Below, piece by piece: positions 10,186-13,028 of a stretch of DNA of 42,994 nucleotides. The position numbers and the translations under genes are program-made. The number at the start of each line of letters is the position of its first letter. Within the stretch, counting starts at the first letter, position 1. The stretch comes from a bacterium (GTDB lineage Bacteria > Patescibacteriota > Saccharimonadia > Saccharimonadales > SZUA-47), in assembly GCA_030430915.1 (NCBI GenBank), contig JAUIKH010000003.1, positions 1-42,994 on the forward strand. The letters are read 5' to 3'. The notes beneath the pieces were generated by a model. The model was given only the letters and a program-made list of their open reading frames with translations. It was not told the DNA's origin and searched no databases.

Positions 10186-11054
10186 TATGTTTTATTGATT
10201 GCCTCGTCAAATTCTTTTGGAATTTCGGACTTAAAAGTTTTCTGGCCGTATTTCGGTATCTCTATCTGTAAGCTAAATGCATGTAACATTAACCTGTCAT
10301 TTGCTTTGCCTCCATATAGCAAATCCCCAACTATGGGATGACCTATGTACAATAGGTGTATTCGTAGTTGATGCGTTCTACCTGTTTTAGGCACCAACTC
10401 TAATAAAGAGTGCCTATCGGTTGTTTTTTTGGTTTTATAGTATGTCTGTGCACTTTTGCCTTCTTTAGAGACCATAAACTTTTTAGGATTTTTGGCATTA
10501 CGAATAATTGCTGCATCTATAAGTGCTTCATCATGATCTGTTTTACCCTCTATAATCGCAATATATTTTTTTATAACTTTTCTGTCGTGAAATTGATTTT
10601 GTAGTATTTTTAGGGTTTTTTCATTTTTTGCGCATATCATGACTCCACTCGTTGCTCTATCTAGCCTATGGACAATTCCAGGTCTTTCACCTGTCATATC
10701 GCTAACTCTATCTCTAATAAAGCTAGCTACTGATGCTTCCTGCCAAAATTTCCCTCGTGCATGAGAGATAATTCCGGCAGGTTTATCTATAACAATTACA
10801 TTCTCATCTTCATAAATTATTGGCAACTCTATAACCTCAGGCTTAGCCTGTAGAGGTCCTAAATCATACTCTAAAGTTGTACCAGGTTTAACCCGAAATC
10901 CTGGCTCAATTGCTTCATCGTTAATTTTAATAAGATTTAAATCAAACAACTTCTTTAAGGCGGCTCTAGAATATTCTGGTAATTGTAAAGATAAAAACTT
11001 ATCGGCTCTTATAAATTTAGAGTCTACTGGCAATGTCGTATACTGTTTGCTCAT
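10185..11054 (-). CDS. RluA/RluD family pseudouridine synthase
   Basis: N-terminal S4-like domain, IDKPAG, IVHRLDRATSG, TGRTHQLRIH and LMLHA motifs. Confidence 0.93.
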   Translation of the reverse strand: MSKQYTTLPVDSKFIRADKFLSLQLPEYSRAALKKLFDLNLIKINDEAIEPGFRVKPGTTLEYDLGPLQAKPEVIELPIIYEDENVIVIDKPAGIISHARGKFWQEASVASFIRDRVSDMTGERPGIVHRLDRATSGVMICAKNEKTLKILQNQFHDRKVIKKYIAIIEGKTDHDEALIDAAIIRNAKNPKKFMVSKEGKSAQTYYKTKKTTDRHSLLELVPKTGRTHQLRIHLLYIGHPIVGDLLYGGKANDRLMLHAFSLQIEIPKYGQKTFKSEIPKEFDEAINKT

Positions 11055-11167
11055 TTTTCTAGTGGTTTAAAAGGCAATAATATAATATCGCCAATGAATT
11101 TTGCCACCTTATTTATTGGCCAAAAAATTGACTTACTTTCCTTATTTTGACTGAATTCTTTATTCAT
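11051..11167 (-). CDS. 38-aa small ORF absent from the ORF track (MNKEFSQNKESKSIFWPINKVAKFIGDIILLPFKPLEK)
   Basis: Fills the trpS-rluD gap exactly, with an ATGA overlap at each end. Confidence 0.6.
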   Translation of the reverse strand: MNKEFSQNKESKSIFWPINKVAKFIGDIILLPFKPLEK

Positions 11168-12186
11168 CTAAGCCCCACTGCTTTTTGAACTTTGTACATT
11201 GTTTCTTTAGCTTGCTGATTCATTTTGGTTTCTGAATTTTCCAATTTACTAATAACTTCATTCTCTTCAACTTTTTTATAATTCGATTGGAAATCAGCTA
11301 GAAATTCACAAACGAAGTCTGCTACTTCTGTTTTTAGGTCTCCGTATCTAGTGTGAGATTCATATTTAGCGCATATTTTTTCAGTAGTACTGCCCGAAAA
11401 AGCTGCCAAAATATTAATTAAGTTACTGATGCCTGGTTGACTTTCAAAATTATAATTAATCGAGTTTAGACTATCGGTGGTTGATGACATTATTTTTTTT
11501 CTTGCTTCTTCTGGAGTGTCTGATAAGTATATTACTCCTTTGCTAGATTCTGAGGACTTACTCATCTTGACTCTTGGGTCAGTAAGGTCTCTAATTCTGA
11601 GTCTGGCTTGACTGTTTTCAAACTCCGCTTGTTTTTCTTCTGGCTCTGGCAACTGAAAAATATCACCAAATTTATTATTAAATCGTAGTGCTATATTCCT
11701 AGTTAACTCTACGTGCTGCGTTTGATCTGCTCCTACTGGGACGTATTTAGCACCATACAGGAGTATATCTGCAGCCATAAGTACAGGATAGTCAAACAGA
11801 CCAACGCTAACGTTTTTTTGATTTTCTGACTTACTTTTAAACTGAGTCATCCTACTCAATTCACCAAAGTATGTAAAGCTATTTAATATAACTGTTAGCT
11901 CACTGTGGGCAGGTATAAAGCTTTGTCGATATATATAGGTATTATCATTTTCTAAATCTAAACCTGCAGCTACAAACAGCTTTGCGTTATTTATAGATCT
12001 TTTGTAAAGTAGCGAATGATCTACTGGGGTTGTAAAACTATGAAGGTCGGGTATAAATAAATTTATTTGAAAATCATTTGAATAACGTTTTTGTAGATCT
12101 ATAATTGGCTTAAGTGATCCTAAGTAATTTCCAATATGCAAATCATTATTTGAGCGAATTCCTGTAAGTATTACTTGTTTAGTCAT
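11164..12186 (-). CDS. trpS: Tryptophan--tRNA ligase
   Basis: HIGN, YPVLMAADILLY, VPVGADQTQH and KMSKS motifs. Confidence 0.97.
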   Translation of the reverse strand: MTKQVILTGIRSNNDLHIGNYLGSLKPIIDLQKRYSNDFQINLFIPDLHSFTTPVDHSLLYKRSINNAKLFVAAGLDLENDNTYIYRQSFIPAHSELTVILNSFTYFGELSRMTQFKSKSENQKNVSVGLFDYPVLMAADILLYGAKYVPVGADQTQHVELTRNIALRFNNKFGDIFQLPEPEEKQAEFENSQARLRIRDLTDPRVKMSKSSESSKGVIYLSDTPEEARKKIMSSTTDSLNSINYNFESQPGISNLINILAAFSGSTTEKICAKYESHTRYGDLKTEVADFVCEFLADFQSNYKKVEENEVISKLENSETKMNQQAKETMYKVQKAVGLR

Positions 12187-12247
12187 ATGTATTTACCATT
12201 ATAACCTTTAAGTTCATTGTTAAAAAGTATATTACATTAACTCTTTT

Positions 12248-12433
12248 TTAAGTTTCATTCTGATGTGCTAGGTATATTATAGCTTCAGCACAAAATCTTT
12301 GAGGTGATCTATGGTCTTCAAAACCCATACTAACTTTATTTTTTTTGATTTCCTTTAAAGCCTCTTGTTGTGATATTAATGACTCAACTTGTGATATTTC
12401 AGCCTCAATTAGACTGTTAGTGGCATTTTTCAC
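12248..12433 (-). CDS. Hypothetical 61-aa protein
   Basis: GTG start with an AAGGAG Shine-Dalgarno 10 nt upstream; directly follows the terminator. Confidence 0.55.
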   Translation of the reverse strand: MKNATNSLIEAEISQVESLISQQEALKEIKKNKVSMGFEDHRSPQRFCAEAIIYLAHQNET

Positions 12434-12454
12434 TGTTATCTTTCTCCTTGAATT

Positions 12455-12481
12455 AAAAAACCGCCTCTTTTGAAGCGGTTT
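12455..12481 (-). terminator. Intrinsic terminator (candidate attenuator)
   Basis: Minus strand AAACCGCTTC-AAAA-GAGGCGG-TTTTTT. Confidence 0.85.
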
Positions 12482-12501
12482 GAAAATTCGTTATATTAAG
12501 T

Positions 12502-12582
12502 TTATCTTGAACGCACGTAGCAAACCGCTAATACATGGCTTTTAAACCAATATTGCATAAATGTGTTTACTACCTTATTCAT
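12502..12582 (-). CDS. Putative 26-aa leader peptide MNKVVNTFMQYWFKSHVLAVCYVRSR
   Basis: ATG lies 6 nt after TATAAT; the ORF contains a 9-nt segment complementary to the terminator 5' arm. Confidence 0.55.
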   Translation of the reverse strand: MNKVVNTFMQYWFKSHVLAVCYVRSR

Positions 12583-12588
12583 AATAAT

Positions 12589-12617
12589 ATTATATATCTA
12601 TACAATATAAATTACAA
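12589..12617 (-). promoter_or_regulatory. Sigma70-type promoter downstream of rpsI
   Basis: TTGTAA-17 nt-TATAAT. Confidence 0.65.
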
Positions 12618-12632
12618 GTTTACGAAAAAACA

Positions 12633-13028
12633 CTATCTCTTTGTAAATTGTCTCTGTTTTCTAGCGCCTTTAAGACCAAATTTCTTTCTCTCACGCTCTC
12701 TTGGATCCCGTCCAAGAAGGTCAGCTTTTTTAAGAGTTCCTTTTAGGCTTTCATTTTTTTCTGTCAAAGCTTTAGATATACCTAACTTAATTGCATCAAC
12801 TTGCGAGGAATGACCTCCGCCGCTTACCACAACACTAACATCGTATTTTTTGTCACCTATAACTCTAAATGGAGTTTCTAACTCGTTTAATAGTTTTGCA
12901 CTATTAGAAAAATAATCACTGGCAAGCTTATTATTGATTGTAATAATCCCTTTTCCATTAGTAACTCTAACTCTTGCTGTAGAGCTTTTTCTTCTACCTA
13001 AGGCATATGTGTAATGTGTATCTGCCAT
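12633..13028 (-). CDS. rpsI: 30S ribosomal protein S9
   Basis: GRRKSSTARV, SGGGHSSQ and RERERKKFGLKGARK..QFTKR. Confidence 0.97.
   Translation of the reverse strand: MADTHYTYALGRRKSSTARVRVTNGKGIITINNKLASDYFSNSAKLLNELETPFRVIGDKKYDVSVVVSGGGHSSQVDAIKLGISKALTEKNESLKGTLKKADLLGRDPRERERKKFGLKGARKQRQFTKR

Follow-up and report, generated by a model that had tools for sequence, protein, structure and literature searches.

A probable ribosome-mediated transcription attenuator with a leaderless, aromatic leader peptide upstream of trpS in Saccharibacteria

The region upstream of trpS in a genome of the order Saccharimonadales is best explained, in our judgement with good confidence, as transcription attenuation of the classical, ribosome-mediated kind, the leader peptide being made from a leaderless mRNA. 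The element lies on the minus strand of the window, i.e., the whole 42,994-nucleotide stretch of DNA analysed (contig JAUIKH010000003.1 of assembly GCA_030430915.1, positions 1 to 42,994), and its anatomy, conservation, reading frame, spacing, and covariation are directly supported. The parts found in the window are the following:

12633..13028, minus strand: rpsI, for which no terminator of its own was found within the window
12612..12617, minus strand: -35 hexamer TTGTAA of the promoter P1, read from the sequence
12589..12594, minus strand: -10 hexamer TATAAT of P1, 17-nt spacer from the -35 hexamer, ending 6 nt 5' of the leader ATG
12502..12582, minus strand: leader ORF, ATG at 12582-12580, 26 codons and TAA, reading MNKVVNTFMQYWFKSHVLAVCYVRSR
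12565..12573, minus strand: segment 1 (GTAGTAAAC), partner of GTTTGCTAC (12525-12517), 9 bp, in the MFE structures
12544..12552, minus strand: regulatory codons TAT-TGG-TTT (Tyr11-Trp12-Phe13) with the sole Trp codon of the leader, 12549-12547
12517..12529, minus strand: segment 2, of which 12529-12521 pairs with segment 3 and 12525-12517 with segment 1
12472..12482, minus strand: segment 3, both the 5' arm of the terminator and the 3' arm of the antiterminator
12455..12467, minus strand: segment 4, the terminator 3' arm (12467-12458) running into T6 (12460-12455)
12444..12449, minus strand: Shine-Dalgarno sequence AAGGAG of orf61, 10 nt 5' of its GTG at 12433, read from the sequence
12248..12433, minus strand: orf61, predicted small three-helix protein, the first gene behind the attenuator
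12198..12203, minus strand: -10 hexamer TATAAT of the promoter P2 of trpS, 11 nt 5' of the trpS ATG
11164..12186, minus strand: trpS, tryptophanyl-tRNA synthetase of 340 aa (Pfam tRNA-synt_1b, E 8.9e-57)

P1 matches the consensus at 10 of 12 positions, and the promoter, the ATG 6 nt behind it, the upstream ORF, and its Tyr-Trp-Phe run with the only Trp at codon 12 all lie where a previous, sequence-only reading of this DNA had placed them. The 9-nt complementarity proposed there is exact, AGCGGTTTG (12529-12521, minus strand) being the perfect reverse complement of CAAACCGCT (12482-12474) in the 5' arm of an intrinsic terminator (12481-12458, minus strand; 10 pairs followed by T6). It also exceeds chance: the 2:3 duplex of the window is matched by about 1% of 200 mononucleotide shuffles, and for 62 further terminators with perfect stems in this genome the upstream complement of the 5' arm does not exceed 6 nt, compared with 9 nt here. 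The scan that yielded these terminators provides a control set only, and it misses the terminator of the attenuator itself, whose stem includes a G-U pair and whose loop is long when perfect pairs alone are considered. A further 9-bp helix between segments 1 and 2, absent from the earlier reading, overlaps the antiterminator arm by 5 nt, which makes this a four-segment element with the helices 1:2, 2:3, and 3:4; about 1% of shuffles equal this 1:2 duplex. Folded as a whole, the 151-nt region has an energy of -42.9 kcal/mol (z -6.07), a value reached by none of 200 shuffles. Folding of the separate conformers, in line with the switch proposed, gives -14.2 kcal/mol for the terminator hairpin 3:4 (z -5.43), -17.8 kcal/mol for the leader hairpin 1:2 (z -2.93), and -13.1 kcal/mol for the antiterminator conformer 2:3. 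Since the terminator conformer is favoured at equilibrium (-18.0 kcal/mol), antitermination would have to be kinetic.

The attenuator belongs to a family that is widespread in Saccharibacteria. With the covariance model R1, 25 of 31 genomes of the same family gave a match (E<=0.01), and R2, an order-level model built from relatives, gave one in 88 of the 151 genomes sampled from this order, representing 68 of 121 genera (E<=1e-4). Model R2 found the element in none of 41 trpS loci from outside Saccharibacteria, as against 11 of 39 loci of the Saccharibacteria type; weaker relatives occur in other orders and classes. A single TrpRS protein used as a query for related loci gave no match, and alignment A6 retrieved relatives. 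In the 869-kb genome, a search for similar modules, which the sequence-only reading had envisaged, returned no second copy of the attenuator, and trpS, too, is the sole copy found. No Rfam family reached its threshold at 11900-12900 (7 matches at E<=10). Phe_leader (RF01859) gave 20.6 bits (E 1.1) at 12452-12509 only, below its gathering score of 55 bits. The window is absent among the matches to Trp_leader (RF00513; gathering score 41 bits) at E<=10, and the leaders of three relatives match this family below threshold, at 28.7-32.1 bits. T-box leaders are the usual regulators of aminoacyl-tRNA synthetase genes in Gram-positive bacteria, and the element resembles them in that uncharged cognate tRNA would raise expression through antitermination; it differs in being an ORF-bearing element of ca. 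130 nt with proposed sensing via the ribosome instead of tRNA binding. A T-box was rejected as a candidate, with no match at E<=10 in 11900-12900 nor at E<=0.1 in the loci of 7 relatives.

The comparative set consists of 60 distinct leaders, the matches of the order-level model totalling about 100 places. In alignment A4, which like A5 was fitted to the covariance model and holds relatives that are not independent of one another, 89.4% of the cells of the antiterminator 2:3 are paired, compared with 25-66% when the partner is slid, and double changes occur in 4 of its 7 pairs. The terminator is paired in 96.9% of cells, with 12 double-change cells among 37 distinct sequences, and was also recovered independently by RNAalifold. 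The 2:3 duplex is better than 95% of shuffles in 54 of the 60 leaders, the 1:2 helix in only 23, its register varying between sequences. In single-sequence folds only, an extension of segment 2, TGTTCTGTGCGTTC, pairs with the linker 5' of segment 3; such an extended antiterminator could account for the conserved C-S-V-R-S codons.

The leader peptide is conserved as well. Its codon for Trp stands at the aligned column in 57 of the 60 leaders, a near-invariance that is partly circular because the covariance model was seeded with TGG-containing leaders. Phe or Tyr precedes it in 56 leaders and follows it in 56, and the five codons from W-3 to W+1 hold a mean of 3.63 aromatic residues, compared with a genome background of 8.1% for F+Y+W. 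The homologous leaders are 14-29 codons long and their conserved core is [F/Y]-W-[F/Y]-T. In 54 of 60 leaders the W is codon 11 or 12 (range, codons 9-14), and 59 of the 60 nevertheless keep ATG and W in one frame. Promoters of sigma-70 type with a score of 8 or more out of 12 precede the leader ATG in 43 of 60 cases, compared with 12 of 298 random ATGs; in these relatives the -10 box lies 4-10 nt from the ATG, most often 7. The antiterminator arm (GGCGG) starts 20-22 nt past TGG in 55 of 60 leaders. The earlier reading had located this arm at the 'AV' codons, and the pairing stands; the codons themselves are not conserved as peptide, the same GGCGG being read in frame 2 in 38 leaders, in frame 1 in 14, and in frame 0 in 8, so that it is evidently kept as RNA. 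Taken over the relatives, conservation, frame, spacing, and covarying terminator and antiterminator pairs bear out the claim of a leaderless Trp leader with a terminator/antiterminator switch upstream of trpS. What the switch senses, on the other hand, had to be redrawn. The Trp codon is conserved as the reading supposed, but the sensor appears to be the aromatic run [F/Y]-W-[F/Y] rather than Trp alone, as suggested by the conservation of the whole run together with the presence of the family upstream of prephenate dehydratase and DAHP synthase genes. In the window the leader has just one Trp codon, which counts against attenuation.

The constraints on frame bear on a translation-independent RNA switch binding a ligand, a tRNA, or a protein, with the ORF incidental. 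Conservation of segment 2, the terminator, and the string TGGTTTAC at the nucleotide level would suit such a switch. It would leave without explanation the ATG-to-W frame held despite changes in length, the promoters that place the ATG at the 5' end in 43 of 60 leaders, the enrichment of aromatic codons, and the excess of synonymous codon differences in frame 0 (19.2%, compared with 8.0% and 12.5% in the other frames, over 167 non-independent pairs). Moreover, no T-box or riboswitch family matches at E<=10, and leaders of 14-29 codons leave little room for an aptamer, which makes this explanation highly improbable.

Selection on the peptide itself raises another alternative, in which [F/Y]-W-[F/Y]-T would be a nascent-peptide arrest motif sensing a small molecule in the ribosomal tunnel, for example a host metabolite or an aromatic amino acid in free form, instead of tRNA charging. 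Of the 60 leaders, 45 retain a Thr behind W-F and between them use all four Thr codons for it, which points to selection at the peptide level that a hungry-codon sensor does not need; the narrow placement of W at codon 11 or 12 and a pair of leaders from one genus with identical N-terminal peptides at 85% nucleotide identity point the same way. However, by eye the 60 peptides share no C-terminal residue and no fixed distance from W to the stop, the residues 5' of W vary between F and Y, and the spacing of 20-22 nt suits a ribosome paused on the aromatic codons. The targets are genes of biosynthesis and charging, which one would expect starvation to induce, and ACN may owe its conservation to a small hairpin, GGU-UUAC-ACC, that appears in single folds. 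We regard arrest of this kind as quite improbable. TnaC-type arrest, in which termination is Rho-dependent and a conserved Trp lies at a set distance from a Pro-stop at the C-terminus, was rejected: only 2 of 60 peptides end in Pro (by eye), the position of the stop relative to segment 2 ranges from -7 to +31 nt across the leaders, a 38-nt spread, and the terminator is intrinsic.

In the attenuator that we prefer, transcription from P1 would begin at or adjoining the ATG and the ribosome would load onto the 5' end of the mRNA. With charged tRNA-Tyr, tRNA-Trp, and tRNA-Phe in ample supply, the ribosome would pass codons 11-13 and segment 2 and reach the stop; segment 2 would then be occupied, kept from segment 3, or recaptured by segment 1, so that the 3:4 hairpin and the T-run could form and RNA polymerase would terminate at about 12455. 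The stop codon of the window's leader lies 25 nt past the start of segment 2, so a terminating ribosome would leave the core of segment 2 uncovered, and the mechanism thus needs either steric separation or re-formation of 1:2. With an aromatic codon in the A site of a stalled ribosome, the leading edge would stand just short of segment 2, which begins 20 nt past TGG, and the same ribosome would keep segment 1 away. Unoccupied segment 2 would pair with segment 3 once the latter is transcribed, the terminator would be blocked, and orf61 would be transcribed; with no terminator past orf61, transcription would proceed into trpS. Where transcription starts, that the ribosome stalls, that kinetics decide between the helices, and any effect on the level of TrpRS are steps that we infer from the arrangement of the parts. 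A search of sequencing runs for this stretch listed no RNA run.

The terminator probably has a second task. As rpsI has no terminator of its own in the window, that of the attenuator would also end rplM-rpsI transcripts, a caveat already voiced in the sequence-only reading that thus remains pertinent. On these transcripts the ATG would be internal and devoid of a Shine-Dalgarno sequence, the default 1:2 plus 3:4 structure would form, and the same hairpin would close the ribosomal-protein operon. Carried to its extreme, this would leave a chance ORF beside an operon terminator, the more so as AT-rich DNA is rich in promoter-like sites (19 found, compared with 11.8 expected). Alternatively, the ORF could be a macrolide-sensing leader owing to its terminal R-S-R; macrolide-sensing leader peptides have a conserved R/K-x-R/K (+x+) arrest motif at the stall site. 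Conservation across the family contradicts both. In several relatives, as judged by eye, rpsI is followed by a separate hairpin and T-run, and only then by promoter, leader, and attenuator, and the other 59 leaders all end differently from R-S-R, typically in ...SVRS, ...SVRL, or ...FRVFA (by eye). The antibiotic caveat of the earlier reading, resting on a motif confined to the window, therefore falls, and this pair of explanations is hardly credible.

The genes located 3' of the leaders are small ORFs together with trpS, or genes for prephenate dehydratase (PDT), DAHP synthase, and others; some look exporter-like or racemase-like, as judged on N-termini alone. trpS is found downstream of 41 of the 60 leaders within the sequence examined. 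In another class, two adjacent Trp codons occur in a leader located 58 nt 5' of a class I W/Y synthetase gene. An ORF of at least 50 aa starts no more than 60 nt from the T-run in 57 of 60 leaders; two of the remaining three show, by eye, a 32-codon ORF. In the window this gene is orf61, described earlier as an orphan. It is instead the best of 6459 genome ORFs when compared with a profile of the small ORFs of 10 relatives (E 0.021), and it appears to be a member of a small-protein family recurrent at this position. Its AlphaFold2 model has three helices (pLDDT 90.3). Searches gave no match in Pfam, nothing at E<=0.001 in the PDB with Foldseek (best E 3.7), and no usable match in the protein atlas, and 36 small ORFs likewise had no match in Pfam.

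trpS itself has a conserved promoter of leaderless type. A -10 box matching at 5 or more of 6 positions lies 6-12 nt 5' of its ATG in 24 of 27 loci, compared with 4.0% of 3451 ATGs, and a perfect TATAAT in 15 of 27, compared with 1.1%; the TATAAT before trpS, noted as a caveat in the earlier reading, is hence both real and general. Most loci have no Shine-Dalgarno sequence 5' of trpS, and the promoter is kept in loci devoid of a leader, e.g., in rpsI-trpS gaps of 39 and 50 nt. It follows that the attenuator can add only read-through to trpS. This, together with the ORFs of at least 50 aa near the T-run, makes it possible, though we lean against it, that the attenuator governs only the Shine-Dalgarno-bearing orf61, trpS being transcribed independently from P2 as a leaderless or near-leaderless mRNA. 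However, the stretch from orf61 to trpS showed no terminator, so read-through transcripts would include trpS; the element retains its position and orientation 5' of trpS, a Trp codon in the sensor suits feedback on TrpRS, and the two-Trp leader of the other class precedes a synthetase gene. Control of trpS by the attenuator would accordingly consist in read-through, which may add little TrpRS.

Trp auxotrophy is plausible, as the sequence-only reading had supposed: in this 99.1%-complete genome, searches for Trp_syntA, IGPS, and Chorismate_bind gave no match, whereas all 14 control genomes matched. The primary target of the attenuator may even be the small proteins of the orf61 type encoded between leader and trpS, as starvation-induced modulators of TrpRS, tRNA-Trp, or aromatic uptake; they would be anti-TRAP-like and would form a CPR-specific scavenging layer accompanied by conservation of the [F/Y]-W-[F/Y]-T peptide. 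We hold this to be unlikely.

As proposed, the element is an attenuator of a classical kind, and the surprise lies in where it is found and what it would control, not in the mechanism. E. coli trpL has tandem Trp codons and a leader led by a Shine-Dalgarno sequence. The window's element resembles it in the short leader ORF with a Trp codon, the four predicted segments, the intrinsic terminator, and the regulatory codons placed ca. 20 nt ahead of segment 2, and differs in the single Trp within a mixed F/Y/W run, the leaderless start, and the location before a small ORF and trpS instead of Trp biosynthesis genes. A ribosome-dependent attenuator whose transcript begins at the ATG of the leader ORF is described for Sinorhizobium meliloti trpL in the relevant passages of PMC7298713. 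It shares the leaderless leader peptide with the window, whereas its target in that alphaproteobacterium is trpE(G) biosynthesis, and the released attenuator RNA and peptide act in trans. Passages of PMC1262725 report classical attenuators predicted 5' of trpS and leuS in Streptomyces, along with the E. coli pheST leader, so the Streptomyces precedent invoked earlier is in print, as a prediction. The likeness is that a leader-peptide attenuator precedes the gene of an aminoacyl-tRNA synthetase and reports the charging of that enzyme's tRNA; the phylum is different, and in the window trpS has a promoter of its own and is separated from the leader by a small ORF. Experimental work on the attenuation of Streptomyces trpRS1 reportedly exists. 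In the portions of the literature consulted, trpRS1 is cited for indolmycin resistance. Leaderless polycysteine short ORFs in mycobacteria tune the downstream operon to amino-acid supply, according to the relevant part of bioRxiv 10.1101/834739. They are likewise leaderless and rich in one kind of codon, that for cysteine, unlike the aromatic codons of the window. A literature search found no description of such an attenuator in CPR bacteria.

In Saccharibacteria, as in other reduced episymbionts of the CPR, gene regulation is to our knowledge almost unexplored. The attenuator represents a widespread, sequence-defined cis-regulatory family in Saccharibacteria, many of which very likely sense the supply of aromatic amino acids by ribosome-mediated attenuation, to judge from comparative sequence data; it indicates that aromatic aminoacyl-tRNA supply is monitored via the ribosome itself. 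The family defines a small regulon comprising trpS-linked small proteins, prephenate dehydratase, DAHP synthase, and the exporter-like and racemase-like genes. The leaderless leader and the -10 box right before trpS suggest that this clade uses leaderless initiation as a matter of routine, and the element may provide the few Saccharibacteria that can be manipulated genetically with a natural module for inducible expression. Should the small proteins prove to be the primary target, the system would be a CPR-specific regulation of scavenging from the host and not a plain copy of enterobacterial attenuation.

On the minus strand of the window the genes are ordered rplM, rpsI, trpS, a 38-codon ORF and a rluD-like gene, with 446 nt between rpsI and trpS. 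The genome (869 kb in 63 contigs) is 99.1% complete. The nearest TrpRS in named records come from Candidatus Saccharibacteria or Saccharimonadales (top identity 64%), and the nearest in the compared relatives' genomes, none of the same genus, is 62% identical. The rpsI–trpS neighbourhood is common to many relatives, with a gap of 39 to 1420 nt. In the window it comprises the following features:

12617-12612 and 12594-12589, minus: leader promoter, TTGTAA, 17-nt spacer, TATAAT (promoter scan, 10/12)
12582, minus: leader ATG, 6 nt past the -10 box
12582-12502, minus: leader ORF of 26 codons (ORF reading)
12549-12547, minus: sole Trp of the leader ORF, codon 12, with Tyr and Phe either side (ORF reading)
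12573-12565 and 12525-12517, minus: helix 1:2, GTAGTAAAC (codons 4-6) with GTTTGCTAC (MFE fold)
12529-12521 and 12482-12474, minus: antiterminator arms (2:3), AGCGGTTTG exactly complementing CAAACCGCT
12481-12458, minus: terminator (3:4), a 10-pair hairpin then T6 (terminator scan)
12433-12248, minus: orf61, a small ORF between the attenuator and trpS, with AAGGAG 10 nt upstream
12203-12198, minus: trpS -10 TATAAT, 11 nt before the trpS ATG at 12186

The GTTTGCTAC arm of helix 1:2 overlaps the antiterminator arm in the MFE fold of 12590-12440, and thus the element has the full four-segment layout of leader hairpin (1:2), antiterminator (2:3) and terminator (3:4). This fold (-42.9 kcal/mol, z -6.07) is equalled by 0/200 shuffles. 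Folded alone, the leader hairpin has -17.8 kcal/mol (z -2.93), the antiterminator -13.1 (z -2.09) and the terminator -14.2 (z -5.43), and when all segments are present together the terminator conformer is favoured (-18.0 kcal/mol). As a chance control, the genome was scanned for perfect-stem terminators and a complement of the 5' arm was sought 15-85 nt upstream; it is 9 nt long in the element versus at most 6 nt in all 62 control terminators. The sequence-only reading had placed the promoter, ATG, ORF, Trp codon 12, complementarity and terminator exactly where they are found; the MFE fold adds helix 1:2, absent from it.

A search of the window's genome finds the element once; in many relatives two or three copies stand in tandem ahead of trpS. 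In several relatives' loci a short ORF ending in ...[F/Y]WFT....AV... is followed by GGCGGTT, a complement to the 5' arm of the terminator, AACCGCC-loop-GGCGGTTTTTT, that comes next. A covariance model of 11 relatives' sequences, comprising the terminator pairs only, has matches in 25/31 genomes of the same family (E<=0.01). A model rebuilt from 39 model-aligned matches finds the element, at E<=1e-4, in 88/151 genomes and 68/121 genera of the order (77/131 genomes at least 90% complete), in 28/151 genomes of the class (8 outside the order, 36-51 bits) and in 12/151 of the phylum (10 outside the order, 36-50 bits). At E<=0.01 it matches 11/39 named Saccharibacteria-type trpS loci, with 1.6 kb upstream covered, and 0/41 named trpS loci from other phyla. 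Unpublished genomes G019 and G007 are the source of 2 of the 11 seeds (loci L003 and L004) and of 2 of the 60 leaders treated in the next paragraphs, and G062 is included in the order tally; no claim depends solely on unpublished genomes. Loci from other orders or classes of the phylum (L088-L097, 36-50 bits) contain short ORFs with aromatic runs, then terminators; in one (L091) a pair of adjacent Trp codons lies 58 nt ahead of a class I W/Y synthetase gene, and others are followed by GCS2/amidoligase-like, M20 peptidase and AstE/AspA-like genes. Attenuation by aromatic leader peptides may be widespread in the Patescibacteria.

That the leader is translated is indicated by 60 distinct order-level leaders, coding for peptides of 14-29 residues. 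The distance from ATG to TGG is divisible by three in 59/60, with the Trp codon at position 9 (2 leaders), 10 (3), 11 (32), 12 (22) or 14 (1). The aligned column is TGG in 57/60, preceded by F or Y in 56/60 and followed by F in 50 and Y in 6; codons W-3 to W+1 hold on average 3.63 aromatic residues, versus 8.1% F+Y+W in the genome's long ORFs. Thr comes next in 45/60, in all four codons (ACC 28, ACA 11, ACG 4, ACT 2). Among 167 equal-length leader pairs, which are not independent, the synonymous share of differing codons is 19.2% in the leader frame versus 8.0% and 12.5% in the other frames. A sigma-70-like promoter (at least 8/12) whose -10 ends 4-10 nt ahead of the ATG (mode 7) precedes 43/60 leaders, versus 12/298 ATGs drawn at random from these loci. 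The 17 leaders without it are mostly second or third tandem copies inside operons, and some carry, as judged by eye, an AAGGA-like stretch instead. Another type of leader, ...[F/Y]W[Y/L/I]....SWRY(C), with two Trp codons and usually no promoter of its own, occurs as second or third tandem leader (L047, L046, L006, L022, L012, L045, L049) and has the same GGCGG in a different frame; it is followed, upstream of trpS, by an ORF of 86-90 aa and/or a protein of ~195 aa, which from its N-terminus alone we take to be racemase-like.

Helix pairing was counted on an alignment of 37 distinct rows. The terminator is paired in 96.9% of cells versus 25-65% in slid controls, with 12 double-change cells, in alignments fitted to the model's terminator and thus favouring this helix; RNAalifold recovers it independently. 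The antiterminator, for which the alignment of segment 2 used sequence alone, is paired in 89.4% of cells versus 25-66%, with double changes in 4/7 pairs (8 cells). Compared with 200 mononucleotide shuffles, the duplex energy of helix 2:3 has p<=0.05 in 54/60 leaders (mean z -3.4) and that of helix 1:2 in 23/60, both being at about p 0.01 in the window. Segment 2 starts 20-22 nt past TGG in 55/60 leaders, while its GGCGG is read in frame 2 (..AV.., 38 leaders), 1 (..WRY.., 14) or 0 (..GGLF.., 8). Since the nucleotide distance is kept but the reading frame is not, the A-V codons, whose complementarity had been noticed from the sequence and is indeed conserved, are conserved as RNA, and the aromatic run as coding sequence. 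The full-length MFE fold is a long antiterminator in L007, L010 and L005; in it the codons after segment 2 (C-S-V-R-S) are paired with a linker, ..TTGAAAAT..GAAGA, that is conserved ahead of segment 3. Such a long antiterminator would account, at the RNA level, for the conservation of the peptide tail.

Conservation, frame, spacing and helix pairing in relatives thus agree with the attenuator interpretation. They support a genuine attenuator of the classical leader-peptide type, leaderless, widely conserved and apparently tuned to aromatic codons, and its being ribosome-mediated is very probable. The mechanism proposed below is deduced from this geometry and from what is established about attenuators. 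A ribosome shields roughly 13-15 nt downstream of the A-site codon. Stalling with an aromatic codon in the A site would leave segment 2, at +20, just free, and the ribosome body would hold segment 1 off it; segments 2 and 3 would then pair before segment 4 is transcribed, permitting read-through. An unimpeded ribosome would continue across segment 2 as far as the stop codon, whose position in the 60 leaders ranges from 7 nt ahead of the segment 2 start to 31 nt past it. There it would cover segment 2 or part it from segment 3, or alternatively 1:2 would re-form behind it; with segment 2 unavailable to segment 3, the terminator would form. Because the terminator conformer is more stable with all segments present, the choice of helix must be kinetic, as in classical attenuators.

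As to the signal, the Trp sensing originally proposed is amended: the putative sensor is the aromatic run, not Trp alone, and any of its three codons may be the one that matters in vivo. Trp_syntA, IGPS and Chorismate_bind, each matched in 14/14 control genomes, were not found in the window's genome, so the organism is probably a Trp auxotroph, as already suspected. Tblastn with two relatives' DAHP-synthase-like proteins gave no match in this genome. Its prephenate dehydratase gene, on contig 40, has no leader and carries TACAAT 8 nt before the ATG, resembling the trpS arrangement. A sensor of charged tRNA-Trp (and Tyr, Phe) would make physiological sense.

The caveat that trpS has its own TATAAT proved real. 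In 24/27 relatives' loci (from the set L002-L030) a -10 hexamer (at least 5/6) lies 6-12 nt before the trpS ATG, perfect TATAAT in 15, versus 4.0% (1.1% perfect) of 3451 ATGs of the same loci, and trpS mostly has no Shine-Dalgarno sequence; trpS thus appears to have a promoter of its own and a leaderless or near-leaderless mRNA. Such mRNAs may be common in the clade. No terminator was found between orf61 and trpS, and hence the attenuator can add read-through transcripts to trpS; on this arrangement, it can apparently do only that. Whether the element materially regulates TrpRS is evenly balanced. No terminator of rpsI itself was found in the window by the terminator scan, and the attenuator hairpin presumably also ends rplM–rpsI transcripts, on which the internal leader ATG has no Shine-Dalgarno sequence; several relatives have, by eye, an rpsI terminator ahead of the leader promoter. 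Beyond trpS, the 38-codon ORF (11051-11167, minus), without a Pfam match, is matched by tblastn at the equivalent position in five relatives' loci (L006, L015, L017, L018, L022; E 1e-7 to 2e-11) and is probably a real conserved small protein. In six relatives (G001, G011, G017, G020, G034, G035) the match to TrpRS itself is split in two inside a single open frame of 280-433 aa, which points to an in-frame insertion near residue 120-130 of the enzyme.

Downstream genes were classed by the first ORF (at least 50 aa) to start no more than 60 nt from the T-run: 38/60 leaders have a small one (up to 110 aa), 19 a larger one and 3 none, although two of these three have, by eye, a 32-codon ORF of the same type. 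A TrpRS gene follows 41/60 leaders in the available DNA, many loci stopping after 1.5 kb. Among the larger genes are those for prephenate dehydratase (PF00800, E 1.8e-50 and 1.3e-38) and for a member of the DAHP synthase family (PF00793, E 5.7e-12); others are presumably LysE-like, racemase-like and dehydrogenase-like, judging from N-termini only. None of 36 small ORFs at leader loci, nor orf61, matches Pfam. orf61, at first regarded as an orphan, is not one: its frame ranks first among 6459 genome ORFs, if only at E 0.021, against a profile of ten relatives' small ORFs from which it was excluded. Its AlphaFold2 model (11-sequence alignment) is a confident three-helix structure (pLDDT 90.3, pTM 0.72) with no PDB fold match (best E 3.7). 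In some relatives a second, unrelated type occupies the same position, Cys-rich (C...C..C patterns), 72-101 aa long and without a Pfam match (L046:1128-1403, L047:1188-1490, L048:1242-1484, L040:499-714).

None of 4227 Rfam families matches the window at threshold, the best being Phe_leader (20.6 bits, gathering score 55); Trp_leader and T-box give no match in it at E<=10, and three relatives' leaders score 28.7-32.1 bits with Trp_leader (gathering score 41). The mechanism itself is not new, being classical attenuation, and attenuation of Streptomyces trpRS1 has reportedly been studied experimentally. For Streptomyces, classical attenuators have been predicted ahead of trpS and leuS (PMC1262725). 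The trpL transcript of S. meliloti starts at the leader's ATG (PMC7298713), and in mycobacteria short leaderless ORFs rich in cysteine codons (polycysteine) are reported to work as attenuators (bioRxiv 10.1101/834739). None of the papers found in full-text searches on Saccharibacteria, TM7, CPR and Patescibacteria describes such an element in this group. As far as this literature goes, it is the first cis-regulatory family to be defined in Saccharibacteria, and its interest extends to the uncharacterised small proteins that it would gate.
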